Translations under genes and position numbers: made by a program | Virus record (IMG/VR): IMGVR_UViG_3300034105_001195 | Coordinates: 1-64,000 of that record | Reading direction: 5' to 3' (one strand) | Origin: a virus | DNA: 64,000 bases | The notes under the pieces: model-generated | What the model was told of the DNA's origin: nothing | The model's database searches: none | The model's input: only the letters and a program-made list of their open reading frames with translations | In this document: piece by piece, positions 2,394 through 56,136 of the stretch | How the letters are laid out: each line of letters starts with the position of its first letter | How positions within the stretch are numbered: position 1 is the first letter of the stretch

Positions 2394-2583
2394 TTTTCTC
2401 CCTTAAACTAAAAGTAAATGACGGGCCTTCCTCGTCATAATCTATAACTAAATCCTTATTGCTTACATTGACATCTAGGAATCTAAGGGTCGGAACCGTT
2501 AGCTTTCCATATTCTTCAAGTAGTGCGACTAGAACCTGATTCATACTAATTGAAGTAATTAAACCATCAACATCTTCTGTCAT
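2368..2583 (-). CDS. Hypothetical protein
   Basis: Fills the gap between dnaE and the MazG-like gene with overlapping start/stop codons. Confidence 0.7.
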   Translation of the reverse strand: MTEDVDGLITSISMNQVLVALLEEYGKLTVPTLRFLDVNVSNKDLVIDYDEEGPSFTFSLREKNGVESDSN

Positions 2584-5500
2584 TTTATTTCCTTTACCAT
2601 TAAGGTTCCATCATCCAAAGTCGATAGAACAACATTACACTTCATACCTTCTCGCATCTTAGCAAGAGACATCTTATACATTGTTGGGAAAGCAATTACT
2701 CTAGTCAATTCTTTTTGTGCATTTGAAAGAATTATATGGCTCATTGTCTTGCCAGCCTTTGTTACGTATGGAGTAAAGTCTACTACAATATACTCGTCTT
2801 CGTCAAGGTCATACTGCTTCTTATATAGATAGTCTACAAATGAGTTGGACCCTGTTGGGTCAATCTCGCTAACCTTTACATAACGTGCAATTCTATTATC
2901 TCCTACAAGAATAAAATACATCTGGCCCGTCTCGATTTGAGTTTGCTCTGTATGGAATAGACCAATCGATCCTGTTTCATCTACAAGCTCAATACGTGCC
3001 CATCCATTACCACGCTTAATTGATTTAACCATGCCAAACATAACGAATGAACCTAAGTCCTCAAACTCTTCAATCGGTCTTGCTTGTGACTTAATACGTG
3101 GTGGAATTCCCTCTAGGTTAAATGTAGGTATACCTAGATACTCGTAGTAACTATCTTTTTCATTTCCGCTTCTAGGGTTATCTGGGAATGCCGCCGCTCC
3201 GATTGCATTTAAAGCAGAGATGGCACGACTATTGATTCCGCTACCTTTCTTGGAAGCTTTATCGATAAACTCTGAATAAGAATTAAAAGGTCTATGATCA
3301 ATGATCTTGTTAGCAATACTATCTGAAATAAACTTTACTTCTCCAAGACCGAATCTAATCGAGTCTTCCTTTAAAGAAAAGAATACATCTGATTCATTGA
3401 TATGCGGAAGTTTAATGCTAAGCTTTAGTCGCTTTGCTTCAATTAGATATTCCGTTCTCGCATCTTTGTCATTTTCGTTCTTAAGAATCGAGAACATAAA
3501 TTCCAAAGGATAATAAGTCTTGAGCCAAGCAGTATAATAAGAAAGCATAGAGTAAGCAACAGCATGGGAACGGTTAAAAGAATAACCAGCATGAGCCTCG
3601 AAAGTATGCCAGAGCGTTTCGGCTTGCTTCTTAGAAATGTGTTTTGAAGCCCCATCAATAAACCTATCTTTGAATTGGTCGAACTCTTTTGCATCTTTCT
3701 TCTTTCCAATAATCTTGCGGACCTTATCAGCCTCTGACCAAGTCATACCTCCCAAGTGTACGCATGCCTGCATAACTTGCTCTTGATATATAATAACACC
3801 GTATGTATTCTCAGTAAAAGGCTTCATAATTGGATGGATAAACTGGACTGCTTCATCCCCGTGCTTACGCTTAATATAGGAAGCGCCTACTGTATTCATG
3901 GCTCCTGGACGAACCAAAGCATTTGATGCAGCAAGATCTTCAAACTTATCTACACCCATCTTGATTAGCAAATTAGTATAAGGGGTTGCTTCTGCCTGAA
4001 ACACTCCCTTTGTATATCCTTCGCTTAGTACCTTGTAAACATCTGGATCATCAAGAGTTAGCGCAGAAAGATTAATATCTTTCCCTGAACGCTTTTTAAT
4101 TGAAGCAAGGGTATCTGAAATTACAGATAAGGTCTTAAGTCCTAGTGCATCTAGTTTAATAAGACCTATATCCGCAACCGTATCCATATCGTATGCAACG
4201 ACAGGAATTCTACCTGATACTAAATCACTTGCATCAGCTCTTGATTCAACAGGAGCATACTTTCTTAAATCATCTTTTGCAACTACAACACCTGCAGCGT
4301 GTACGCCAACAGATCTAATTCTTCCACGCAGTCTATCCGCAAGCCACAGGACTTCAGGGTACTTAGTTCTAAACTCTTTAGTATTTGGTGATTCAACAAA
4401 GTCTTCAAAGGTATCGATAGATTTCATTGCACGGTTAACATCTGAAAGAGGAACCATGAATACACGAGCAGCATCTCTAATTACACCCTTATCTTTAAAG
4501 TAAGTGTATGTTGAAATAGATGCAACGTGCTTAAACTTCTTCTTTAAATAATCTTTAACTTCTTTACGACGACGGTCTTCAAAGTCTGTATCAATATCGG
4601 GAAAGTCATTACGTTCTGGGTTAATGAAACGGAAGAACAGCAGGTCATATTTAATTGGATCTACATCCGTAATTCCAAGCGCATAACAGACCAATGAGCC
4701 TGCAGCGGATCCACGACCTGGGCCTACCTTAATATCATTACTCTTTGCCCAGTTAATCATATCTGCTACAACTAGGAAGTATGATGCAAAGGACTTATCT
4801 TTAATTACAGATAGCTCTTCTTTAAGCCTATCAATGTAGACTTGAGAGTCTTGTAGGCCTAGCCTTTTAAGGCCTTCAGAGGCCATCTGAGACAACTTCT
4901 CGTCGGCATCTGTCTTAGGGACTGGGAGCAGGTCTAAACCACTGTTAAAATCGTATTCCTGAACTTTATCTGCAATCTCCATAGTATTCTCATATATATC
5001 TGTACGAGTAATACCAGCCTTATTGAAGTCAGCCTCAATTTCATCTCTTGATTGAATGAATAGATTGTAGTCTTGAAAGGATATTCTACGGTCTGGATAT
5101 AGGTAATTTAGTCTTTCATTAATATCTTTAATCTGTCTAGACATTTCAAAGTCAGCATCTTTATCCATCTTAGGAGATGTCGACAATATGAGCATTGCCT
5201 CTTCTAGGACTCTATCTTCTTCTTTAGCAAAGTGAGCATCTCCTGTTGCCACCGCCTTAATTTTAAGTTCATCCGCTAATTCTAATAGGGCAGAGTTAAT
5301 TGGTTCAGGGTTATGGGATTGAACCTCAACATAAAAGTCTGGGCCAAATGTTTTCTTAAATCCTTCAAGGAGAGTTCTGGCTTCATCTAGACTGCCTCTA
5401 TCAATAGCCTTACTAATTAATCCATTAAGACATCCGCTCAAAACAATAATGCCTTCGCTATATAGATCTAATACTTCTCTATCAATTCTAGGCTTATGAT

Positions 5501-5849
5501 AAAAGCCTTCGTTCCAAGCAAGCTCTTGGAGAGTATTGATATTCTCTAATCCCTTTTTATTTTTTGCTAACAGGATGATATGGTTATACGCTTGAATAGA
5601 TTTGTCTGTCTTTGAAGCCTTGTCAAATCTATCTGTTGGAGATATGTAGGCTTCTACTCCAAGGATTGGCTTTATGCCTTCTTCTTTACAGGCAATTTGC
5701 ATTTCACGGTGTGATGATAATGTACCGTGATCTGTAATTGCTATTGCTGTCTGCCCCGCCTCTTTTGCAGCACGAACAAGTTCGAGGGGAGAGTTAAGAC
5801 CATCCATTAAAGAATAGTAGGAATGCACATGCAAATGTGTAAATTTCAT
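2580..5849 (-). CDS. dnaE: DNA polymerase III alpha subunit (family C)
   Basis: PHP domain HLHVHS/ITDHG; GPGRGSAAGS; catalytic FPDIDTDF; GYSFNRSHA; C-terminal OB fold. Confidence 0.97.
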   Translation of the reverse strand: MKFTHLHVHSYYSLMDGLNSPLELVRAAKEAGQTAIAITDHGTLSSHREMQIACKEEGIKPILGVEAYISPTDRFDKASKTDKSIQAYNHIILLAKNKKGLENINTLQELAWNEGFYHKPRIDREVLDLYSEGIIVLSGCLNGLISKAIDRGSLDEARTLLEGFKKTFGPDFYVEVQSHNPEPINSALLELADELKIKAVATGDAHFAKEEDRVLEEAMLILSTSPKMDKDADFEMSRQIKDINERLNYLYPDRRISFQDYNLFIQSRDEIEADFNKAGITRTDIYENTMEIADKVQEYDFNSGLDLLPVPKTDADEKLSQMASEGLKRLGLQDSQVYIDRLKEELSVIKDKSFASYFLVVADMINWAKSNDIKVGPGRGSAAGSLVCYALGITDVDPIKYDLLFFRFINPERNDFPDIDTDFEDRRRKEVKDYLKKKFKHVASISTYTYFKDKGVIRDAARVFMVPLSDVNRAMKSIDTFEDFVESPNTKEFRTKYPEVLWLADRLRGRIRSVGVHAAGVVVAKDDLRKYAPVESRADASDLVSGRIPVVAYDMDTVADIGLIKLDALGLKTLSVISDTLASIKKRSGKDINLSALTLDDPDVYKVLSEGYTKGVFQAEATPYTNLLIKMGVDKFEDLAASNALVRPGAMNTVGASYIKRKHGDEAVQFIHPIMKPFTENTYGVIIYQEQVMQACVHLGGMTWSEADKVRKIIGKKKDAKEFDQFKDRFIDGASKHISKKQAETLWHTFEAHAGYSFNRSHAVAYSMLSYYTAWLKTYYPLEFMFSILKNENDKDARTEYLIEAKRLKLSIKLPHINESDVFFSLKEDSIRFGLGEVKFISDSIANKIIDHRPFNSYSEFIDKASKKGSGINSRAISALNAIGAAAFPDNPRSGNEKDSYYEYLGIPTFNLEGIPPRIKSQARPIEEFEDLGSFVMFGMVKSIKRGNGWARIELVDETGSIGLFHTEQTQIETGQMYFILVGDNRIARYVKVSEIDPTGSNSFVDYLYKKQYDLDEDEYIVVDFTPYVTKAGKTMSHIILSNAQKELTRVIAFPTMYKMSLAKMREGMKCNVVLSTLDDGTLMVKEIK

Positions 5850-19506: not shown

Positions 19507-19974
19507 TTATACCTCTTCTAAAGATAAAGATACATCCCAAAACTCTTGCGGGACTGAGGCTGTAGTAGATTTAACATTTCTTTTAGATACAGTAAAACTA
19601 CATGATGTAAAGGAGGCTAGAATAATTTCATCTCTTGCAGAAACTGCATTATAAGATATCTTAACCTTAAATGTTCCCTTACCTTTATTTAAATAGAATG
19701 CTCTTATATCTTCTGCACCCATTCCACCGTCCACGGTCATGGTGCTATATGTAGGGATATCTCCCCAAGAAGCAGATACTGTTTTTTTATCTGCAATCCA
19801 TATTTTTCTCAATGAGCCATTTGACATTCTTTGAGTCTTTTCAATTCTGTCTACGTCTACCGACGCTGAGCCTCTATTATGCTCAGACAATTTTGTCCAA
19901 GTTGGGGTATTTGCGTCTGTGCCTGTGTCAAAATAAATTAATGATCCTACAGGAAGTGTCATTGGATAGCTCAT
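19507..19974 (-). CDS. Distal tail (Dit-like) protein
   Basis: Immediately follows the TMP; RMSNGSLR and terminal SLSLEEV typical of Dit/lambda gpM-like proteins. Confidence 0.6.
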   Translation of the reverse strand: MSYPMTLPVGSLIYFDTGTDANTPTWTKLSEHNRGSASVDVDRIEKTQRMSNGSLRKIWIADKKTVSASWGDIPTYSTMTVDGGMGAEDIRAFYLNKGKGTFKVKISYNAVSARDEIILASFTSCSFTVSKRNVKSTTASVPQEFWDVSLSLEEV

Positions 19975-22900
19975 GTTTTAATACTCACATTCATTGGGTT
20001 ACCCTTCATTTTAGCATTTAACTTTGTATCTTGTCCAATGGCCTGCTTTGTCATTGATACCACTTGTCTTACAAATGCATCAGTATTCATACCTTCAGAT
20101 GGGTATATGTTCTGTGTAAGATTAATTACGTTTCCGCCGCCTCTAGAATCGCTCATTGGCTCAAACATTTTGGCTGCTTGACCTACATCATATCTTGGAG
20201 ATGCAAATGGTAGCTTAGCCATATTAGGGATAACCATTCCTCCAAACGCCATTTCTGGTCCACGGTCTCCAACAATTGTAGGAACCTTTGGATTAAGCTT
20301 CATGGTTCCATATCCAGCTTTTACTGCTTGAACATTAAGGCCTGCTGGTGAACCATCACCTGTTACTTTCCATTTTTTACCATTCTTATCTAAGAACTCA
20401 ACACCAATCCAGGTAGAGCTTGGCCTTCCATTTTTAGTATTTGTTGTTTGTGTTGCACCTGCTGCGATTAAGGTAGATGGATGAACAATTGTAGCTCCTG
20501 CATAGGCTCCAGCAGTTGCTCCCAGAGTTGTAGGAACAGAACTAATCTTAGCGGTAGCCTTTGACGGACTCATGTCCATTTTCTTGCCATTAATATTAAT
20601 GTCTCCTGTCATTGCGTCGACAGTAATTCCCTTTGAGGCTAAGCCTTTTGTAATAGCGCCTTCTACTCCGCCCATAAAACCTGCAGCCTGGTCTGTCACG
20701 CTTGGATTATTTACCCTAGGAGATCTCTTTAATTGCAACTTAGGCGTGACAATTGTTTCTGGTCTTGCTGTGTTTACGGTTCCAACTACACCTGCTGAAG
20801 CGGCTTGGCCTTCAGGTGTTTTTGCATACTCCTCTAGAGTCATTCCTAAAGCATAGGCATTAATTCTTAATGTAGTCATTGCTTGATTAACATCATTAAT
20901 TTGTTGCGTCTGTGTTGCAATCTTTTTATTTAATGCACCTAAATTTTCTGCTGCAAGAGCTGCATTATCTGACATCTTTTCTTGTCCAGCGTTGATTGCT
21001 TTAATTTTAGCTTCAAGAGGAGCATTGGCCAATTTGTTTGCATCTTCAATTGCTTTCTTCTGTGAATTATATTGTAGGGTAGACTGAAGCCCTTCCATAT
21101 CAAGGCTTGCCTGCTGAGCACCTGCTGTATTTCCAGTTGCAATTGCAGCATCGTATTCCGCCTGCTTTTTAGCAATCTCTCTGCCAAGGTCACCCTCTTG
21201 CTTTGCTGCATCAAGGGCTTTTAGCCTTGCATCTGCTAGCTTGTTGTTTGCATCTATCTGACTTTGTAAACGCTTTAATTCGTTTTTAGTATCAATTTGT
21301 TTTTGAGCGCTTTGGCCTTTAGCCGCTTTCTCTAGAACATCTCTCTGATCTGTTAACTTTTTTAAAGCTTTATAATTTTCTTTTAGTAATCCTTCTTTGT
21401 TTGCTGAAGCAACCGATGCGGCAACTGAATCGGCAACCATAGACAAATTCCTTACTGCTTCGGCGCCTAGTTGTGAAAGATCTCCAGTAAAGCCCTTTGC
21501 CCCAAGACTCATTTTTTCAAATAGGCTAACAACTGTATCCATAGGGTTAATAATTTTTCTAAGTTCTGGATTTTGTTTAATCATTTCTGCTCTAGTTCCT
21601 GCAGTAAGTACGGCCTTAGAAGACTCTAGTTTATTTAACTTTTTAAGCATTGCTTCTTGTGCTTGATACTCAGTTAATACTTTTGTGTTTCCGCTCTTGT
21701 CTGCTTTTGCAGCCTTCTTGCTTTTTTCAATCTCATCTATAATTCCAGCCTGTATAGCCATCAGACCAGTGTTGACTGCCTTTGCGCCTTCACGTCCATT
21801 ATTTGCTGAAGCAGAAACATAATTGTTTATTGCAGATTCTGCTGCATCCTGGCCTGTTCTAATATTTTTAAATGCACGGTTGCCTACAGTAAATGCTCCA
21901 GCCTTTTCTGCCTGATCAGAAAGCTTAAACATTGCAAATATTTTTTTGCTTGCTTCATCCGCTGACATTCCAGCGGCCATCAATGCGGTCTTAATATCGA
22001 TTGCTACCTGCGGAAGCTCTGATTCCTTAGATTGATTAATTAATTTAATTTGATCGGTATAGGTTTCCTTAACTTCTTTCTTAAGCTTTTTATACTCTTC
22101 AATTGTCATAGAAATAGGAAGCCCCGCATCTTGCATGCTTTCAAAAAGCATTTGGTTTCTTTCTCGTATGGCTTCTATATTTTTAACTGTATCAGCAAGC
22201 TTAGAGTTATAATCAGTAAACTTAAGTCCTGCCTTTTGAGCAGCTTCTGCTGTAAGGCCATAGCGTGTTGCTCCAATTCTTAAATGCTCGTTATGGTCTC
22301 TCATTCTCTTAATGCCCAAAGCAATAGTTGTAGAAAGTCCTGCAACTACAAGATTTGCCCTAGTTGCCATTAATGCTACTCTTCCAAGCATTGGTGCAAG
22401 TTTAGAACCGCTAGCTGCTAGCTTGTCCGCTTGTAATGCTGCTTTACCCGCACCTGGAAGTGATTGTGCTAATGTATTTCCAAGTCCGCCCATTCTTGAT
22501 GTGACTGGTCCAGTCTTTCTGTCAGAAACTGCACCTGAATATGTAAATCCTTCTGGCCTTTGCTTCCCGCCGCCGCCCATCATCATAAATGGAATAATTC
22601 CACCTAAAGTAGATAGTGCTGTCCCCCCCATTCCTCCAATTTTGCCACCCAACATTTGTGCAGCAAAAGCTGCAATTAGAGGCCCTATCATTCCGCCTAT
22701 GTTATATCCTTGAGCCATTGTCGATCTATTTGGAATAATACCTCCAGCGTTTCTAGGAACAAAAACTTCTGGGCCTTTTTCTCCCACAACGTATGGCTGT
22801 CCAGCATTAACTGGTCCGCCCATTTCTCTTTTTTCTAAACCAAATATAACTTGCTTTAAAGAGTCTGTAAGTGGTGTATCTTTTTTAGATTCCCAATTTA

Positions 22901-25900
22901 AGAATTTCTTTCTTAGTATGTCTTTATCAATTGGTGATAATTGAGACAGAACAGCTCTATCTCCTATAAGATCCGAAGCAGCAGATCTTATAACTGAATC
23001 TAACACGTCTGGCTCAAGAGCATTCTTTAAAGACCCCTGTGCATCTTTAACATAACCGTAAGGTTTTTCTTTTGCAAGAGCTGCAGCAAACTTATCATAG
23101 AATAACTTTTGAGTATTCTTTCTTAATCCCGTGCTAGCAAATAATGTTTCAGCCATCTTAATAGATAGAGAGTTTACACCCCATGGAGCAGACTCGTACA
23201 TGCTAGGCTTAGGTGCACCTGTTGGTCCAAATCCTGCGCCAATTCTGTGCATTGCTTTACCCTTAAGTACATTTCCAATCATTCCGCCGATATTAAATCC
23301 ATTTTCTGGAGTCTTAAATGCGTTATCCGATAGACTTACGGAGTGACCCTTTTGTCTGCGCTTTAATTCATCTGCTGCAATCATTTTAGCAATAGCCGCT
23401 GGAGTCATTGTTTTTTCTGGAGACATCTTTAATGATGAATGAACTCCGTGCAAATCTCCATATGTTTGTCTTCTTGCGTCAGAGAGTCTTTGAATCATTG
23501 CATTATAAACAACCTTCTCTTCTGAGTTTAAATCGAATCTACTTATTGTTTGTTTTAGCTTAGGCAAAGCCTCATTAATCTCTTGAAGCATACGATCATT
23601 GTATTGATCTGCTGTCATTCCCTTTGGAATACTTGCAGTTGACTCAGCAAAGAATTTCTTTGTGTTGCTTCCCTTTACCCCTAGCAAATTAACCATTGCT
23701 TGGTGCTTGAATGAAGGCATTGTTGCAGAATATTCTCTTGGGCCAGAGGCTGTTGCAAATACTCCAGCTGGTCCCACATCTGCAAGAATATTACCAGATA
23801 GATTTCCCCTACCTAGGTCTTTATCTCCACGCAATGCTGAAGCCACTAGTTGTCTAAAGTATTGATCAGATGTGAACTTGCCGTCTTGATTTGCTATAGC
23901 AGGATTGTACTTAGACTCTAGTGCTAGTATTCTTCTTGCACCCGTTGGGTCTGTTGGATCTTTCATTACAACAACTCTTTGATTAGGTGTTTGTAGGCCA
24001 TGTACGTCACGAGCAATTTCAGTTGCCCTCAATTCAGCAAGTGCTGCTTTTTCATCTAGTACTGGCTTAACAAAAACTTTATCTCCGCCTTTACTATAAA
24101 CTCCACCAATTCCAGCTACTGGGAAACTTCTTCCAGATGTTGGCTCTAGCAATCCATCATAATCGGTTACTGGAGTTTTGCTGAATCTAGAATCTTTGAC
24201 TGCTTGATTTGCCTTTTCCATTGCAGCTTTTGCTGCTCTTTGAGCTTCTACCTGCTTAATAGTTCTAGGCATTCCAAGGAACATCGCTTTGCCGCCTCTG
24301 AATAATTTCTGTGCAAACTGCCCTGGAACCTGACCTCCCATATTAAGTCTTCTTCCTGGCTTCTTAGCTTTTAAAAAGTCCATGAATACTTTTGTTATTC
24401 CAAAGTTATGTTTTAATCTTAACGGAGCCTTGATAATTCTTTCTTCAGTTCCAGGTCCTGTGCCTAACCCTAAAACCTTTCCTATTGTATCAATAGCCTT
24501 TCGCTTTTCTGTTTCAGTTTGTGGCAATCTGTCTTCAAAAGGATTTTCGTGATTTTTTGTTAAGTTTGCAAATGTACTTGTCCATAAATTTTGTTCTTTA
24601 TTTCCCGCCATTGCTTGACCAAAATTACCAGTTGCGCTGTAGCCGTATTGTCCTGCTTTTTGAATGTGCTCTGTGGCATAAGCATGAATATTTGGCTCCC
24701 ATCTTCTTGATTTTTCATTCCAAATTGATTTGCCAAATAGCTCCATCTGTAATCTTTTAACTTCCCCAGCGTTTGCAAATCCCATCTTTGTCAATGTATT
24801 AATTAAAGACGGTGAAGGATGAATAGCATGATGCCTATTGCTAGCCTTTATATTTATTCCAGAAGAAGTTTTAACTGGTGGCTTAAGCAGCCCTCCTCCT
24901 ATTTTTTTATCTAATTCTCTAGTTTGTTTTTCTTTTATTTCTCGCATTCTTTCGTCATCAATTGTGTCTGTTTTAGGGTCGTAAGCATACTGTCTTGCTT
25001 CATCATATAGTCTTTTGGCTGTACGAACTGATTCAACTTCTGACATTCCTAAACCATTAAGTATTGCTGCGTCATGCATTACGTGCCTGACTTGTGTGTC
25101 TTCTAAAAAGTTCTTTGGAATTGATAGTCTTGAAACGTATGCAGATGCTCCTCTTATATTATTTTCTGCTTGCCTTCTTATTCCACCGCCTTCATATCTT
25201 CCCATGCCAGAGGTGTTGCCTGGTCCGCCATTTAATGAATACATTAAAGGCATATTCTTTTGTGCAATACTTGCTGGAATAACTGCTTCTCCAGGAGTTA
25301 ATACAACTGGAACCTGTCCGCCTGTTGCATATCTTGGGGTCCCACCTAGTAGGCTCTTTACGGTTGACATATTTTGTTCTGTAGATTTTTTATTAATTAC
25401 GAATGCGCCTGGTTCTGCTGTTGTGTGGTATGTGTCTGTGTTGCCTGTACCAGGAACAATGCCACCCCGAGCAAACTTAGGCTTTGTTGTTTGAATATTA
25501 TATCCTGCTCCTGAAGTTCTTACGCCCCCAAGTGCTCTTGCAATTCTATCAACTAAGGTCTTTGTCGACCCCTTATGGAACATCTCTTTCATATTTGATT
25601 TACCACTTGCTGGATCAACCACTGGCTGAGATGTAAATGGAACTGTAGTTAGATTTGCTGTTCGCCCCATTGCCGTTGCAGTTGCAGCGGTTGTTTCTGC
25701 AAGCATTGCTTCAACTGTTGCATTTAGTTGTATTACTTTTGCTCTTGCTTGATCCACTGTTATCTTGCTTGCCTGAAGCTGCTTAACAATTGCTTCAGTT
25801 TCTAATGCAGCAAGTTGAGTAATTTCAGAAAATTGTGGTAGCAATGCCTGATATGAATCTGCTAGGCCAGAGGTAATTGTGCCTGTTGCCATAACCTCAG

Positions 25901-28181
25901 CCTTTAATACTTTAATTTCTGCTTCTGATTGCATTGCAATTGCCGCTGTCATTGCATGCCACTTTGCTGCTTCTTGTGCAACAACACCTGTTGATATTCC
26001 ATTTACAGATGTAACACCTGGAATCTTTGGAAGATCTTGATTCATATATGCTTGAGGGTTTTTACCAATTCTAACATTTACTGGAGACGCTCCTGGAACT
26101 GTTCCAAATATAGTTCCTGGCTGTTGTGTCTGAGCTGGAATCATATGAGACATATCTCTTGTGTATGCTTCGCCAACTAGTGGGTTATTCTTATCTACAA
26201 ATCTTTGCCCGCTTGGACTTCCAGCTGCAATTACTCCGCCTGCAAGTGTTGAGATTCCTGGCTGCACTGCAACCTTTGCAGAGTTAGCCTTTATCTCAAG
26301 AGTATCAAATGATGCGGCAAGAGTATTTATTGCATTTGTTAATACAATTGTTGCTTCTGTATCCGAGTAGAATGATGTAGCAAGACCTTTAGCTGCAGCA
26401 TCTGCTGCCATAATTTCTGGAGTAAGTAATTTAAATCCTTGTCCGCCTTTTACTAGCTGTCTTAGGTGAAATATTCCCTTGATGACATATCCAATAAAGT
26501 TGCCCATAACACCAGCCAACATAATAATTGGTCCAGATACTGCGGTTATTCCTCCTAGTACATTTAGGAATGTCTTTACTGGCTGTGGAAGCTTCTGGAA
26601 GAATTTAATAATTCCGTCTACTACTTCTAAAACCTTTGTACTAATTACTAAAAATTGGTTTCCAACTGCTGCAAGATCTGCTTGAACTGAAGCAAGAGCT
26701 CTCTTAAATTTACCAGATGCTGACTCTGTCAACATACCTAATTCTCGGGCTGAAATATTTGCAAGATCCGTTGCGCTTGACTTCATCAAATCCATTACCT
26801 GAAGCGTCTGGGATCCTTCTTTTCCTAAGTTTGCAAATAGAGCGGACATTCTTGCATACTGGAATTTACCGAATAGCTGCTCAATTGCTCTTGATTTGCT
26901 TAGTGGGTCTAAGTTGTCTAGGGCTGATTGAAGATCCATAATTGTCGCAGTTAGGTTGCCTGCGTTAGATGTTACAATCTGATCAATATCTATTCCAAAG
27001 CCATTAAACATTTCTTTAGCAACCTTTGTTGGGTTGATAAGAGAAGCCATTGCTGACTTAATTGCGTTAGCACCTTCTGATGCGTTTACTCCGCCTTCTT
27101 TCATTGCAGTTAAATACAATGCTAAATCTTTTACGTCTCCACCAAGAGACTTTACAACGGGACCTGCTTTAGGAATTGCTTCAACTAAATCTGCTAGGCT
27201 TGTTGAGGTTTGGTTTTCAACTGCGTTAAGGAAGTCAATAGACTGTGTAAGTTCTTCAGTGCTTGACTTAAATGCATTCTGAATAGCAAGAGTTGCCTTC
27301 ATGGCCTCTTGTCTATCTACTTCTCCAAGGATTGCAAGTCTAGAAGTTTCTTTTGTTGCTTCAAGTAGTGCTTGTCCCTGTTGTCCAGTTGCAGCTAGAT
27401 CTGCGGCAAGTCCGATTGTATCTTTATATGCAATACCGTATGCTCCCGCAATTTCTCTTGCTGTTTCTGAAACATCTTTTCTTACCTTTGCAAGCTCTAC
27501 TGCAGATACTGAAGATAGGCCACCGTAAACCTTTTGCAGTCTGACTAACTCTTGATCAGCTTCTCTAAAAGCTTTTTGTGCAGCCATACCAAATGCTGCT
27601 AGTGGTACGGTTAATCCTACTGTTAACTGACGACCTGCCCACTGAGTATTCTTACCCCAGTTAATAAGACTTGTTGCTCCATCATTCATCACCTTGTTCA
27701 TGATGGCAAGTTCTTGTCTTGCTATTGCTGTCTTATTCTTTACTTCATCTAGACCCTTTGCAACCATTACGTTATATTGCATTAAGCCCTGTGCGTTTTT
27801 ACCTACAGGTTGAATAATTGCTTGCTCAAGCATTACCTGCTGTTTTGCAAGGTCTCTAACTAGATTGCTAGTCCTCTTTGTATGCCCGCTCCATGTGTTG
27901 TAGTAGTCATTTAGCTTTAGTCTGCCTCTGTCTAAATTTTTGCCAAACTTTTCTACATCTGAAGTGAGGGATACGAAGTGTTGCGAGAACTGGCCTGTTG
28001 ATGTAAGCGTTGTTGCAAACGCCTTATTCATTACTGCAATTTGATTTGCAAGTTTAGCGTTAGTTCCCGCTGTAACTTCTTGTAACTTTAAGAGTTGGGC
28101 AGTAGTCGCAGCCAGTTGGGTTCTTAAGCCCGTAAAGTCTGCGTTGGCGGTAATATTGGTGGTGATTAAATTATCTGCCAT
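19971..28181 (-). CDS. Tail tape measure protein with inserted cargo domains (includes a kinase-like domain)
   Basis: Follows the chaperone pair; TP901-type TMP core (WAGRQLTVGLTVPL, ENQTSTSLADL, EGGVNASEGANAIKS); hydrophobic segments; PGEAV/GEKGPE motifs; inserted globular domains at aa ~900-1830. Confidence 0.92.
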   Translation of the reverse strand: MADNLITTNITANADFTGLRTQLAATTAQLLKLQEVTAGTNAKLANQIAVMNKAFATTLTSTGQFSQHFVSLTSDVEKFGKNLDRGRLKLNDYYNTWSGHTKRTSNLVRDLAKQQVMLEQAIIQPVGKNAQGLMQYNVMVAKGLDEVKNKTAIARQELAIMNKVMNDGATSLINWGKNTQWAGRQLTVGLTVPLAAFGMAAQKAFREADQELVRLQKVYGGLSSVSAVELAKVRKDVSETAREIAGAYGIAYKDTIGLAADLAATGQQGQALLEATKETSRLAILGEVDRQEAMKATLAIQNAFKSSTEELTQSIDFLNAVENQTSTSLADLVEAIPKAGPVVKSLGGDVKDLALYLTAMKEGGVNASEGANAIKSAMASLINPTKVAKEMFNGFGIDIDQIVTSNAGNLTATIMDLQSALDNLDPLSKSRAIEQLFGKFQYARMSALFANLGKEGSQTLQVMDLMKSSATDLANISARELGMLTESASGKFKRALASVQADLAAVGNQFLVISTKVLEVVDGIIKFFQKLPQPVKTFLNVLGGITAVSGPIIMLAGVMGNFIGYVIKGIFHLRQLVKGGQGFKLLTPEIMAADAAAKGLATSFYSDTEATIVLTNAINTLAASFDTLEIKANSAKVAVQPGISTLAGGVIAAGSPSGQRFVDKNNPLVGEAYTRDMSHMIPAQTQQPGTIFGTVPGASPVNVRIGKNPQAYMNQDLPKIPGVTSVNGISTGVVAQEAAKWHAMTAAIAMQSEAEIKVLKAEVMATGTITSGLADSYQALLPQFSEITQLAALETEAIVKQLQASKITVDQARAKVIQLNATVEAMLAETTAATATAMGRTANLTTVPFTSQPVVDPASGKSNMKEMFHKGSTKTLVDRIARALGGVRTSGAGYNIQTTKPKFARGGIVPGTGNTDTYHTTAEPGAFVINKKSTEQNMSTVKSLLGGTPRYATGGQVPVVLTPGEAVIPASIAQKNMPLMYSLNGGPGNTSGMGRYEGGGIRRQAENNIRGASAYVSRLSIPKNFLEDTQVRHVMHDAAILNGLGMSEVESVRTAKRLYDEARQYAYDPKTDTIDDERMREIKEKQTRELDKKIGGGLLKPPVKTSSGINIKASNRHHAIHPSPSLINTLTKMGFANAGEVKRLQMELFGKSIWNEKSRRWEPNIHAYATEHIQKAGQYGYSATGNFGQAMAGNKEQNLWTSTFANLTKNHENPFEDRLPQTETEKRKAIDTIGKVLGLGTGPGTEERIIKAPLRLKHNFGITKVFMDFLKAKKPGRRLNMGGQVPGQFAQKLFRGGKAMFLGMPRTIKQVEAQRAAKAAMEKANQAVKDSRFSKTPVTDYDGLLEPTSGRSFPVAGIGGVYSKGGDKVFVKPVLDEKAALAELRATEIARDVHGLQTPNQRVVVMKDPTDPTGARRILALESKYNPAIANQDGKFTSDQYFRQLVASALRGDKDLGRGNLSGNILADVGPAGVFATASGPREYSATMPSFKHQAMVNLLGVKGSNTKKFFAESTASIPKGMTADQYNDRMLQEINEALPKLKQTISRFDLNSEEKVVYNAMIQRLSDARRQTYGDLHGVHSSLKMSPEKTMTPAAIAKMIAADELKRRQKGHSVSLSDNAFKTPENGFNIGGMIGNVLKGKAMHRIGAGFGPTGAPKPSMYESAPWGVNSLSIKMAETLFASTGLRKNTQKLFYDKFAAALAKEKPYGYVKDAQGSLKNALEPDVLDSVIRSAASDLIGDRAVLSQLSPIDKDILRKKFLNWESKKDTPLTDSLKQVIFGLEKREMGGPVNAGQPYVVGEKGPEVFVPRNAGGIIPNRSTMAQGYNIGGMIGPLIAAFAAQMLGGKIGGMGGTALSTLGGIIPFMMMGGGGKQRPEGFTYSGAVSDRKTGPVTSRMGGLGNTLAQSLPGAGKAALQADKLAASGSKLAPMLGRVALMATRANLVVAGLSTTIALGIKRMRDHNEHLRIGATRYGLTAEAAQKAGLKFTDYNSKLADTVKNIEAIRERNQMLFESMQDAGLPISMTIEEYKKLKKEVKETYTDQIKLINQSKESELPQVAIDIKTALMAAGMSADEASKKIFAMFKLSDQAEKAGAFTVGNRAFKNIRTGQDAAESAINNYVSASANNGREGAKAVNTGLMAIQAGIIDEIEKSKKAAKADKSGNTKVLTEYQAQEAMLKKLNKLESSKAVLTAGTRAEMIKQNPELRKIINPMDTVVSLFEKMSLGAKGFTGDLSQLGAEAVRNLSMVADSVAASVASANKEGLLKENYKALKKLTDQRDVLEKAAKGQSAQKQIDTKNELKRLQSQIDANNKLADARLKALDAAKQEGDLGREIAKKQAEYDAAIATGNTAGAQQASLDMEGLQSTLQYNSQKKAIEDANKLANAPLEAKIKAINAGQEKMSDNAALAAENLGALNKKIATQTQQINDVNQAMTTLRINAYALGMTLEEYAKTPEGQAASAGVVGTVNTARPETIVTPKLQLKRSPRVNNPSVTDQAAGFMGGVEGAITKGLASKGITVDAMTGDININGKKMDMSPSKATAKISSVPTTLGATAGAYAGATIVHPSTLIAAGATQTTNTKNGRPSSTWIGVEFLDKNGKKWKVTGDGSPAGLNVQAVKAGYGTMKLNPKVPTIVGDRGPEMAFGGMVIPNMAKLPFASPRYDVGQAAKMFEPMSDSRGGGNVINLTQNIYPSEGMNTDAFVRQVVSMTKQAIGQDTKLNAKMKGNPMNVSIKT

Positions 28182-43788: not shown

Positions 43789-45603
43789 TTATGATAGCCC
43801 CCATAGAGTCCAAGTTCCACCTGTCCAAGTTTCATTTACTACTTGAAAGTTTACTGAATTAATAGCTGAGGCTCCTGTATATGTACCAGCGCCTCTTACT
43901 GTAATCATTGTTTGAGTTGTTCCATACAAACTGCTTTGTCCTAATCCGCTAGAAATCAATTCCCAATGCTTTGTTCCAGTACTATTTGCATTTCTAATAT
44001 GGAATTTTCCAGAGTTGTATCTGAAAGTTGTTATAGGCTCTGGCGGATTTAGATATACTGAAGCACCAGCACTTCCTCCAAATACCCAATCTCCTCCGCC
44101 TGTATAATTATTATTGTCTCCGTTAACCTTAACAATCAACGAGTTTCCGAGAACTCCGTTGTTTGAAGTACATGTAAGTCCAGTCCACTCAAGAATTAAC
44201 TCTTTATATGCTCCCGCTAATCCTGTAAATGATGAAAAGAATCCTGAGCTTGATGTATAAGGAGTTCCAATTAAGCTCCAAGTTCCACCGCTTGCGCCTG
44301 CTGGACCTGCTGGACCTGCTGGTCCTTGTGGGCCTGCTTGAGAATTTCCAAATTCAATCCATGATGAGTCATAATAAATATATGTAAGTCCATCATCTGA
44401 GTTATACCAAGCTTGTCCTTCTACTGGATTTGCAGGAGGTGTTGTTGCTACTACTGAGAATGTTGCTTTTGATCCCGCCTCACCTTGTGGGCCTTGCGGG
44501 CCTTGTGGGCCCTGTGGACCAACGATCTGACCTGCAGAAGACCAAGATGAGCCATTCCAAATATAAAGGTCTCCATCTGCATCAACAATTCTTGCATCGT
44601 TTACAGTATTTCCTGTTGAAGGCAATGCTGCTACAGTTAAAGAAGATGCTTTAAGATTTATAGATACGCCTTGTGGTCCTTGAATTCCTTGTGGGCCTTG
44701 TGCACCTGTTGCGCCTGCGGGACCAGATAAAGATGATCCTGTTTCTACCCAATATGAATCATAGTATGTATAACTTCTGCCGTTATCTGAATTAAACCAC
44801 GCCTGTCCATTTACTGGACTTGCTGGTGGTGTTGAAGATGTAATAGAAAATGTTGCTTTAGATCCTTCTGGTCCCGTCGGTCCAGTTAAACCTTGCGGTC
44901 CCTGTGGACCTTGCGGTCCAGTTGCGCCTGTGATTCCTTGTGGACCCGTTGATCCTTGTGGACCCTGTGGGCCCTGTGCGCCTGTTTCACCAGTTAGTCC
45001 TTGTATGCCCTGTGGACCTTGCGGTCCTGTTGCACCTGTTGGTCCTGTTGCACCTGTTGGTCCTTGAATTGTTCCAACATTAATCCAGTTGCTACTTACC
45101 AAATCCCAAACATATAGGTTACCTGAGATTAAATATCCATCTCCAGCACTCCCAGTTGGTTGTGCTGCTTGTAATGCTGCAAGTGATGCATAAGAACCAA
45201 GTATCTGTACTCCAGTTCCAGTGTCACCTTTGTCGCCTTTAATTCCTTGAATACCTTGTGGGCCTTGTGCACCTGTTGCGCCAGTTGCGCCAGTTAAACC
45301 TGTTAATCCTTGTGGACCTTGAGGTCCTGTTGCGCCAGTAGATCCTGTTGGTCCTGCAACAGTACTTGCTGCACCTGTTTCACCTTGTGGTCCTTGCGGA
45401 CCTTGTGGTCCTGTTGCACCTGTAGGACCTTGTGGTCCTGTTGCACCTGTAGGGCCTTGTGCACCTGTTGCGCCAGTTGGGCCTGGATTGTTTGTTAAAT
45501 AATTATCTATATCTGTAGCTAAATAGCCAAGATCTCTTGGGACATCGGGCGACATGTCTAATGTCGGATATCTAAATGTTTTAGGCGTTGTATTTCCTGG
45601 CAT
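43789..45603 (-). CDS. Long collagen-like fibre (hub), probably leaderless
   Basis: TT..FRYP...[15 protein letters not shown] anchor; long GPQ/GPT/GAT repeats; two PxxPVxGQAW...YYD..W.E modules; TGGTATAAT ends 7 nt before the ATG. Confidence 0.8.
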
Positions 45604-54253: not shown

Positions 54254-54550
54254 CTACTGTAGTACAAAACCAAAATGCTTTAGTAAGAAGGTAGCTGCTA
54301 GGGCTGACCAGATTAGATTAAACCAAATTAGGGTAGGTAAAGTTTTAACTGTAGATGACCAGATTAAAGCAAGGCTGGTAACTAAAGCAATAATGTAGAC
54401 CCACCAGATGCTAACTCCAAAAAGGAGGCCTGGGATAATGATTAAGGCCTTTGTAATAAAAGCAAAAAACTCAACAGTATTAGGAAGATTCCAATACTTC
54501 CTGTGTCTCATTGTTCCTAGGGCGTACAACCATTCTTTTCTAAATGTCAT
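54254..54550 (-). CDS. Small multi-pass membrane protein
   Basis: About three hydrophobic helices; TAATG-coupled to the halogenase. Confidence 0.7.
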   Translation of the reverse strand: MTFRKEWLYALGTMRHRKYWNLPNTVEFFAFITKALIIIPGLLFGVSIWWVYIIALVTSLALIWSSTVKTLPTLIWFNLIWSALAATFLLKHFGFVLQ

Positions 54551-56136
54551 TATGCTTCATCCTTGTGATAGTTTTCTTTTAAGAACTGATAATGAGATGG
54601 GGCATTTTTAATTGCTTCATTCCACTTAAATTTAGAGTAGTCTGTAGCCAACTTAAATCTTTCTGCAACTAACTTATAATCAGAATCTGGATAATGGTAC
54701 TTCCAGAAATTAATGCTAATATTGCTAATTGGATACCACTCGTTACCAACTGCAATACAGTGGAATCCATTATTTACACTTATCTCATATGCCTGACTAA
54801 GAAGCTTGCCGTCCATCTCTCTTACCCATTGATGAGCCGTCTCTCTTGTAATTTCTGGATTTACAACATCTCTAGATGTCATATACTTCCAAAAATCTGT
54901 GTCATCTCTTTTGCTAAGGACATAGTGTAATTGCAAGAAAGCAGAGAAAGTATTAAAATGCTTTTTTACAGTAAAATTATATGTCTCTTGATCAAATTTT
55001 GTTATGTGACCTCTAGACAAACTCCGTACTAAATTGCTAGCATTTTCATGAATAAAATAAAGACCATTGCTTTCTAGTGGCTCAAGGAATGCAGATGAGA
55101 GTCCAATAGCAACAACATTTTTGTTCCATGGCTTAGAAATGATACCCGATCTAAAATGAATGTCTCTGAATACTAAATCATCTGTAATTCTATGTGCGCC
55201 TTTTACCTTTCTTAGGTGCTCTTTAAACTCTTCTAGTGCTTCTTCTGGTGTTGTAAATCTATCTGAATAAACGTATCCTGTTCCTATTCTTGAATAAAGA
55301 GGAGCATTCCAAACCCAACCGTTTCCAAGGGCTGTAGACTCAGTGTAGTTTACAACTTCTTCTTCAGGATTTTCATATGGAAGCTGAATAGCCCATGTTC
55401 TATTTACTGGTAAATATTCTGCATGTGATTCAAAAGGAGTATTAAGGGTTTCTGAAATAAGCATACCCTTAAAGCCAGTACAGTCTATATAAAGATCTCC
55501 AGAGACCACCTCTCCATCTTCTAGTGTGAGAGACTTAATACCATTATCATCGTGATCTATATTTGTTATTGTAGACTCTATATGCTTTACACCTCTAGGC
55601 TTGGCGTACTTGTCTTTAAGCCATTCCGCAAATTTAATTGCGTCAAATTGCAATGCATAGTCTTTATGCATTGTAAACGAATCCATTTCGTTTTCTTTTG
55701 GAAAGTACATCTTGTTTGAGTTAAGAAGAACTGACTGAGGAAAAATGCAATCTACGTAGTCTTGTTTTTTAATTTCTGGATTAAATATTTTCATCACATG
55801 CCAGTCATTGCCATTATCTAAAGCAAAATTTCCAACGTGTGGGGATCCGAATGGATAATGATACCCGCCATCACCCTTTTCATAAAAATCAGTAAATTTA
55901 ATTGATAGCTTGTACGATGCGTTAGTATAAGACATAAAGTCTTTGTGATCAATTTCCAAGGCATGTAGCCATGCGGTAAGTCCAGCTAGAGTAGATTCTC
56001 CTACTCCTATTTTAGAAATAGAAGGGCTTTCAATTAGAGTGATATCTCTATCTGGATAGTATTTTATTAGTGTTGCTGCTGTCATCCAGCCTGCTGATCC
56101 GCCGCCTACAATTACAATTTTATCTGACTGATACAT
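54550..56136 (-). CDS. Flavin-dependent (tryptophan-halogenase family) halogenase
   Basis: GGGSAGW, GVGEST, YKLSIKF (catalytic Lys region), IDCTGF, GWVWNAPL and FLEPLESNG motifs. Confidence 0.9.
   Translation of the reverse strand: MYQSDKIVIVGGGSAGWMTAATLIKYYPDRDITLIESPSISKIGVGESTLAGLTAWLHALEIDHKDFMSYTNASYKLSIKFTDFYEKGDGGYHYPFGSPHVGNFALDNGNDWHVMKIFNPEIKKQDYVDCIFPQSVLLNSNKMYFPKENEMDSFTMHKDYALQFDAIKFAEWLKDKYAKPRGVKHIESTITNIDHDDNGIKSLTLEDGEVVSGDLYIDCTGFKGMLISETLNTPFESHAEYLPVNRTWAIQLPYENPEEEVVNYTESTALGNGWVWNAPLYSRIGTGYVYSDRFTTPEEALEEFKEHLRKVKGAHRITDDLVFRDIHFRSGIISKPWNKNVVAIGLSSAFLEPLESNGLYFIHENASNLVRSLSRGHITKFDQETYNFTVKKHFNTFSAFLQLHYVLSKRDDTDFWKYMTSRDVVNPEITRETAHQWVREMDGKLLSQAYEISVNNGFHCIAVGNEWYPISNISINFWKYHYPDSDYKLVAERFKLATDYSKFKWNEAIKNAPSHYQFLKENYHKDEA

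Follow-up and report, generated by a model that had tools for sequence, protein, structure and literature searches.

Does the tape measure protein (TMP) of an uncultured lake phage carry a working kinase in its middle, and if so, where might that kinase act? The question is raised by a 64-kb stretch of DNA (hereafter the window), which is the first part of an 83,353-base IMG/VR virus record (IMGVR_UViG_3300034105_001195) judged 68% complete. All long open reading frames of the window lie on the minus strand, and one of them, a single open frame of 2736 amino acids (19971-28181, minus strand, as are all features located below), encodes the TMP. An initial annotation had placed a HipA/PI3-4-kinase-like domain inside this protein at 23420-24130 (residues 1351-1587), and its kinase motifs and residue numbers proved exact: a translation check places all five putative catalytic residues, K1372, E1383, D1455, N1460 and D1468, where they had been assigned. 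The motifs do lie within that segment, but the module kept in homologs is wider and covers approximately residues 1296-1634 (23280-24296). We report here that this module is predicted to adopt a protein-kinase-like fold, that its catalytic residues are nearly invariant across its homologs, and that it occurs almost exclusively in giant TMPs.

The product of 19971-28181 is a genuine tape measure protein, as had been claimed, because it matches PF10145 (TP901 type) at residues 239-438 with an E-value of 5e-28 (26868-27467, the Pfam 'phage minor tail / TMP' core), because ten PHROG tape-measure families match its first ~850 residues (best phrog_10030, E 7.6e-115; the exception in extent is phrog_28, whose alignment reaches residue 1322), and because its gene lies in the same order as in Streptomyces phage Wofford, where major tail protein, chaperones, TMP and minor tail proteins follow one another. 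Transcriptionally upstream of the TMP gene lie genes for a capsid protein, a head-tail adaptor, an Ig-domain protein and two small proteins, and downstream of it genes for minor tail proteins. Residues 510-571 (26469-26654) form a hydrophobic stretch (Kyte-Doolittle 19-residue windows above 1.5) that probably inserts in a membrane.

The limits of the kinase module, a GG preceding FLGMP and a GG(M) at its far end, were set from phmmer and hmmsearch envelopes and from a coverage profile of 123 TMPs, and GG motifs flank it on both sides. The Gly-rich loop GRSFPVAGIGGVY occupies residues 1350-1362 (24096-24134), between strands 49-53 and 66-70 of the structural model described below. K1372, the putative ATP-binding lysine of the third strand (VFVK, 24066-24068), lies in model strand 73-80, and E1383, the glutamate of helix C (24033-24035), in model helix 83-100. 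The catalytic loop RGDKDLGRGN (residues 1451-1460, 23802-23831) comes directly after model helix 144-157 and contains D1455, which would act as the catalytic base, and N1460, which may coordinate Mg. The DVG at residues 1468-1470 (23772-23780), singled out by the conservation of D1468 and G1470, would be the counterpart of the DFG motif with its Mg-binding aspartate.

An AlphaFold2 model was obtained from an alignment (A1) of 30 sequences and 340 positions with identity down to 26%, and reached a mean predicted local distance difference test score (pLDDT) of 86.6 and a predicted template modelling score of 0.81. It displays an N-terminal helix, three strands with K1372 in the third, a long helix with E1383, two further strands, a helix ending before the catalytic loop, a short hairpin, the DVG and a helical lobe. 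The two lobes of the protein-kinase-like fold are thus present, an N-lobe composed of a sheet and helix C and a C-lobe composed of helices, together with a lysine in the third strand and a glutamate in helix C (K1372 and E1383, by the register of the predicted structure) and a D-x4-N catalytic loop followed by D-x-G (D1455, N1460, D1468 and G1470). The confidently folded core, with pLDDT mostly above 90, corresponds to residues 1334-1588 (23418-24182), that is, model residues 40-294, which are also those spanned by the structural matches. A Foldseek search against the PDB returned CtkA first (E 5e-4), then MAP kinases, HipA and Vps34, the rows examined being all kinases. All 50 rows of structural matches were kinase-fold entries; for CylM, the NuA4 Tra1 subcomplex and the pre-40S particles, we take the matched chain to be kinase-like. 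Further structural comparison gave scores of 11.9 for CotH, 11.3 for CtkA, 10.0 for PI4KII-alpha, 9.3 for HipT and 9.2 for both LepB and HipA. The kinase fold that the initial annotation had proposed to verify by structure prediction was therefore recovered, and the model places the module in the atypical CotH / HipA-CtkA / PI3K-PI4K group. Because the nearest folds mix protein kinases (CotH, CtkA, HipA) with lipid kinases (MavQ, PI4KII-alpha, LepB, Vps34), its substrate could, on the model, be of either class. A protein language model named only neighbours that carry LepB_N, which is a lead only.

The designation HipA/PI3-4-kinase-like holds at the level of this fold group but not as family membership by sequence. 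Searches of Pfam and PHROGs with the kinase domain matched no family, a PDB sequence search with the single domain sequence returned no match, and a PDB search with a profile returned nothing but weak helical proteins and spurious hits from summed WD40 repeats. When 30 members were compared singly to Pfam at an E-value of 10, only one of them touched HipA_2 (PF20613) at E 0.019, below any cut-off. Three families were considered and rejected: HipA (PF07804, PF20613), since PF07804 had no match in the phage genome at E 10 and an hhalign comparison of E. coli HipA with the family profile yielded a probability of only 0.27; CotH, since PF08757 was matched neither in the phage genome at E 10 nor in the Pfam scans; and PI3K/PI4K, since PF00454 was absent from the Pfam scans and the loop reads D-L-x-x-x-N instead of DRHxxN. 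The D-L-x-x-x-N pattern is the catalytic-loop spacing of classical protein kinases. On balance, we lean towards regarding the module (~340 residues, in the middle of the TMP) as a previously unnamed family of the protein-kinase-like superfamily.

Conservation was measured on 291 distinct domain rows, comprising all stored proteins that cover the core, aligned to the profile of alignment A1. K1372, E1383, N1460 and D1468 are kept in all 291 domains, at identities down to ~27%, and D1455 in 290 of them, the exception being protein P0225; the K/E/D/N/D conservation that the initial annotation had named as a check is therefore borne out. G1350, G1360, P1399 and Q1444 are likewise found in 291/291. 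In the Gly-rich loop S1352 is retained in 290 and Y1362 in 287 domains, in the catalytic loop R1451 and D1453 in 284 each and L1456 in 288, and the glycine of the DVG, G1470, in 287. Only 14 of the 340 positions of alignment A1 are invariant, and these include the five residues mentioned above. Because the five had been picked from one sequence, their conservation across homologs is an independent confirmation beyond chance. The substitution of the expected histidine by glycine had been taken as casting doubt on activity, a point that does not survive the comparison: position 1457 is occupied by G in 151 rows, S in 60, A in 33, Q in 33, K in 9 and H in 4 (sum 290). Judged from this alignment, the residue at that position says nothing about activity and therefore gives no reason to doubt it. 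In a set of 88 representative TMPs with an N-terminal core identity of 35-45% (mean 38.9%), identity over the kinase module averages 45.8%, so that the constraint on the kinase equals or exceeds that on the ruler core of the protein. Identities of the N-terminal core and of the kinase showed no informative correlation in 91 distant representatives (Spearman -0.12, p 0.26).

A phmmer search with residues 1295-1634 against 1.84 billion representative proteins retrieved 162 clusters at E <= 0.001, of which 139 reached E <= 1e-30, and a word-indexed search found 836 module proteins among 8000 scored candidates. Over the module, the best 120 of these 836 have 74-100% identity, and PF10145 is present in 109 of the 120. 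Out of 146 representative module proteins, 123 have at least 1500 residues (median 2979, maximum 4468), with the module beginning at residue 600-850 in 63, 850-1150 in 24 and 1150-1450 in 16 of the long ones. When the search was restricted to proteins of 187-595 residues, 19 were found and no free-standing module was among them; these 19 are fragments, since they come from short contigs (657-11,243 bases) and cover the module only in part (11-86%). By these sequence searches the module thus appears essentially confined to giant tape measure proteins. Projected on the TMP of the window, the 123 long representatives share residues 101-550 in 103-107 cases and residues 1351-1550 in 119-122, whereas 50-residue bins at 701-1250 or 1651-2450 are common to at most 14, bins past residue 2450 to at most two and bins past 2550 to none. 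Only the N-terminal core and the kinase module are therefore common to these representative TMPs. Conversely, the module is carried by 119 of the 120 TMPs with the most similar N-terminal core (at least 82% identity), so that in the sampled relatives it accompanies this core almost constantly.

The sole exception, P0315, matches residues 1-1006 and 1775-2736 of our TMP with unrelated sequence between: its residues 1014-1572 replace residues 1007-1774 (window 22860-25163) between conserved flanks. By eye, this central region displays an R / S-x-S / E-x-E pattern reminiscent of ADP-ribosyltransferases, which is an idea only, as no Pfam family was matched at E 10, and a single-sequence fold of the region had a pLDDT of 43.4 and was unusable. 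Another related TMP, P0082 (4104 residues), carries, within residues 2644-2737 and 3074-3114, an OmpA peptidoglycan-binding domain (E 1.7e-18) as well as a second, different and weak kinase-like signal, to ABC1 and APH (E 0.003-0.004, below cut-offs).

The joints that fence the module were located by listing GG motifs and by translation. The upstream joint is GGQVPGQFAQKLFRGG (residues 1282-1297, 24291-24338), which may serve as a recombination or processing joint, and the downstream one is the GG of NGFNIGGM (residues 1632-1633, 23283-23288), kept as NGFxxGG[ML] in the closer homologs of alignment A1. Similar joints recur along the TMP at residues 903-975 (window 25257-25475), 1282-1297, 1632, 1788-1833 and 2647, and follow the pattern [FY]A[RT]GG...EPG.FV...YATGG / GEKGPEVFVP...GG. 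On visual inspection they are similar to residues 735-790 of lambda gpH (FATGG...EPAGIVHRGEFV...YATGG, also rendered as FATGG...EPAG.V..GEFV...YATGG), but by BLAST this similarity is non-significant, with a best joint E-value of 0.98.

How could such a module be used? We favour, with little more than even confidence, a kinase that is built into the tail, ejected and phosphorylates a host target at the onset of infection; its activity as an enzyme, its place in the virion and its entry into and action on the host cell are all inferred. The module would most likely bind ATP-Mg through K1372, E1383, N1460 and D1468, with D1455 serving the transfer of the gamma-phosphate. As a segment of the TMP, the module would be built into the tail, and the TMP would be expelled ahead of the DNA at infection, bringing the module to the membrane or the cytoplasm, where ATP is present. 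There it would refold and phosphorylate its host target before phage gene expression. According to Chaban et al. 2024 (PMC10770324), TMPs precede the DNA out of the tail and become inserted into the envelope, and the N-terminal part of the TMP of Thermus phage P23-45 is an RNA polymerase that was detected in virions and transcribes the pre-early genes. By analogy, this TMP-fused polymerase makes virion delivery of a kinase more plausible.

Several points weigh against this proposal. A kinase fold by itself is no proof of phosphotransfer, and both the Lys-Glu pairing and the site geometry are taken from the secondary-structure register of the model. No cultured phage among 50,697 deposited genome records carries the module, the search giving no match at E 1e-5 and one chance match at E 10. 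A siphovirus tail tube has a lumen of ~4 nm, too narrow to accommodate three folded 34-kDa domains next to one another; the module would need to pass through in an unfolded state, be positioned outside the tube or be cleaved off prior to assembly.

The packing difficulty therefore keeps alive a different explanation, in which an active kinase works in the producing cell, on tail assembly partners, on the TMP itself or on host proteins, and in which the module may be excised at its glycine joints without ever reaching the virion. The TMP is a late product of infection, the GG joints at residues 1282-1297 and 1632-1633 fence the module, the N-terminal core of the TMP is its only constant partner, and three copies of a folded domain of this size fit the tail tube poorly. 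The joints look by eye like the stretch of lambda gpH given above, a protein that is processed in that C-terminal region, but cleavage at the joints is hypothetical and the likeness to gpH falls short of significance. An assembly factor, moreover, needs no fusion to a protein ejected into the host, and a far larger TMP-fused enzyme, the RNA polymerase of P23-45, was found in virions (PMC10770324). We consider action in the producing cell rather unlikely. An explanation that we hold to be similarly doubtful is that the kinase-fold domain does not transfer phosphate, being a pseudokinase that binds nucleotide and serves as a switch or spacer, or performs some other chemistry. SelO and SidJ reportedly use kinase folds for AMPylation and glutamylation, respectively. 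The module has no sequence-level membership in any characterised kinase family, the two residues following the catalytic Asp-Leu are variable, and N1460 and D1468 are 8 residues apart, a short spacing when compared to the roughly 13 of classical protein kinases. Against it, all five phosphotransfer residues are kept in 290-291 of 291 domains down to ~27% identity, including the catalytic-base aspartate that pseudokinases usually lose, and the Gly-rich loop is retained as well (G1350 and G1360 in 291/291).

Delivery could also proceed as we propose with a membrane lipid or an envelope precursor, rather than a protein, as the substrate. The LepB_N neighbours of the language model (again a lead only) would agree with a lipid substrate, the TMP is expected to enter the membrane via residues 510-571, and the hosts of the nearest cultured relatives are actinobacteria, which contain phosphatidylinositol. 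However, the top two structural matches, CotH and CtkA, are protein kinases, even if Z differences of less than 1-2 cannot separate protein from lipid kinases; the PI3K/PI4K motif DRHxxN is not present, and neither a WhiB gene, a tRNA nor a match to a prokaryote genome points to a host. We find a lipid or envelope substrate fairly improbable. A bolder version, which we judge quite improbable, is that the TMP threads a lipid kinase into the host membrane, where it phosphorylates a lipid at the site of entry, for example actinobacterial phosphatidylinositol. If true, the membrane would be remodelled to open or hold the DNA channel, or the cell would be marked against a second infection, and a bacterial virus would, for the first time, be seen to use a phosphoinositide-type signalling enzyme.

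The favoured reading, a delivered kinase, has partial counterparts among known systems. T7 gp0.7 is also a phage kinase acting on host proteins early in infection, but it is reportedly made after infection rather than carried in. Muralytic domains, said to occur in T5 pb2 and in the Tmp of mycobacteriophage TM4, are likewise catalytic domains embedded in a TMP and used during entry; they differ in acting on peptidoglycan outside the cytoplasm, independently of ATP. Among the structural neighbours, CotH, an atypical protein kinase of the Bacillus spore coat (PDB 5jd9/5jda; PF08757), is 11% identical to the module and is a free cytoplasmic protein, whereas the module is part of a tape measure protein. 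Compared to the Helicobacter pylori kinase CtkA and the toxin kinases HipA/HipT, the module has no antitoxin context, in addition to the low hhalign probability with HipA (0.27). PI3K/PI4K kinases (PI4KII-alpha; MavQ and LepB of Legionella) are 6-15% identical to it and possess DRHxxN where it has D-L-x-x-x-N. Closest in architecture is P23-45 gp96, also an enzyme within a giant TMP, which, as described in PMC10770324, is present in virions and active at the start of infection; there, however, the enzyme is an RNA polymerase at the N-terminus, whereas here it is a kinase-fold module in mid-protein. Polyvalent proteins, as presented by Iyer et al. 2017 (PMC5512222), include phage and plasmid kinase domains delivered with the DNA, and these would resemble the module as phage kinases modifying host proteins early in infection. 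The kinases described there, from phages of the Verrucomicrobia-Chlamydia group and of Bacteroidetes, have lost the whole C-terminal subdomain. By comparison with that description, the module retains a helical C-lobe (helices 197-317), its structural matches reach model residue 284-294, and its carrier is a TMP. The term 'tape measure' has no occurrence in that paper. A search by title and start of abstract, over literature outside the subscription journals, returned no report of a kinase domain in a tape measure protein, and in passages from PMC8876498, PMC7824862 and PMC5512222 kinases and TMPs are mentioned unrelatedly. Enzymes in TMPs and kinases in injected phage proteins are thus known, and what is new is the kinase family and its TMP carrier.

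TMPs are usually viewed as rulers carrying at most a wall-cutting domain. Here, a family of lake-phage TMPs keeps an apparently intact kinase that is more tightly conserved than the ruler core itself. If this kinase is delivered, host targets would be phosphorylated before any phage gene is expressed, providing a new route of takeover or anti-defence, and, together with the RNA polymerase of P23-45, the 'TMP as enzyme injector' would become a general theme. The module would further constitute a new compact family of atypical kinases, of ~300 residues, with defined invariant residues to mutate.

Looking beyond this TMP family, we observed that the best viral structure matches of the model in BFVD are large multidomain phage proteins, several of them annotated as ADP-ribosyltransferase or PI3K/PI4K domain proteins. 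They come from Mycobacterium phage Onyinye (1340 residues), Gordonia phages Sixama and GodonK, haloarchaeal tailed viruses and uncultured phages. Similar kinase folds may therefore be carried by other virion-delivered proteins of cultured actinophages.

The nearest cultured relatives of the phage are Streptomyces phages, so that an actinobacterial host is a reasonable guess from sequence similarity. Over 90% of its length, the capsid protein shares 60-61% identity with that of 130-kb Streptomyces phages; of the 232 records matching it, 127 are Streptomyces phages, including the best 15 of the 232, and the TMP core is 33-37% identical to the TMPs of Streptomyces phages. The Wofford TMP (2084 residues) gave no match to the module profile at E 1; it shares residues 151-670 and, weakly, 2261-2414 (24% identity, E 7e-4) of our TMP and nothing further. 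No WhiB match was found in the 83-kb record and no tRNA in the 64-kb window. Two scans of prokaryote genome contigs with a few peptide patterns found no relative, which does not imply absence from prophages.

The phage population is persistent. Its DNA recurs in lake-water metagenomes: among the 24 sequencing runs listed, 22 contain 0.80-1.00 of the sampled words and are dated 2020-2024; 7 of these 22 are flagged as possible sources and the remaining 15 come from 15 studies. Positions 22000-26000 of the window were found near word-for-word in lake-water runs of 2020, 2023 and 2024. No RNA run with this sequence was among the sequencing runs listed, two wastewater RNA-type runs containing only 0.12-0.13 of the words.

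Other genes of the window deserve mention. A 528-residue reading frame (54550-56136) matches phrog_2928, 'tryptophan halogenase', over its full length (E 3e-136), which is unusual for a phage. Far from the main tail module, a collagen-like repeat tail fibre protein of 604 residues (43789-45603) matches 53 PHROG families. A DNA polymerase of 1089 residues is encoded at 2580-5849 (phrog_405, E 0), and the phage is accordingly predicted to replicate with its own DNA polymerase.

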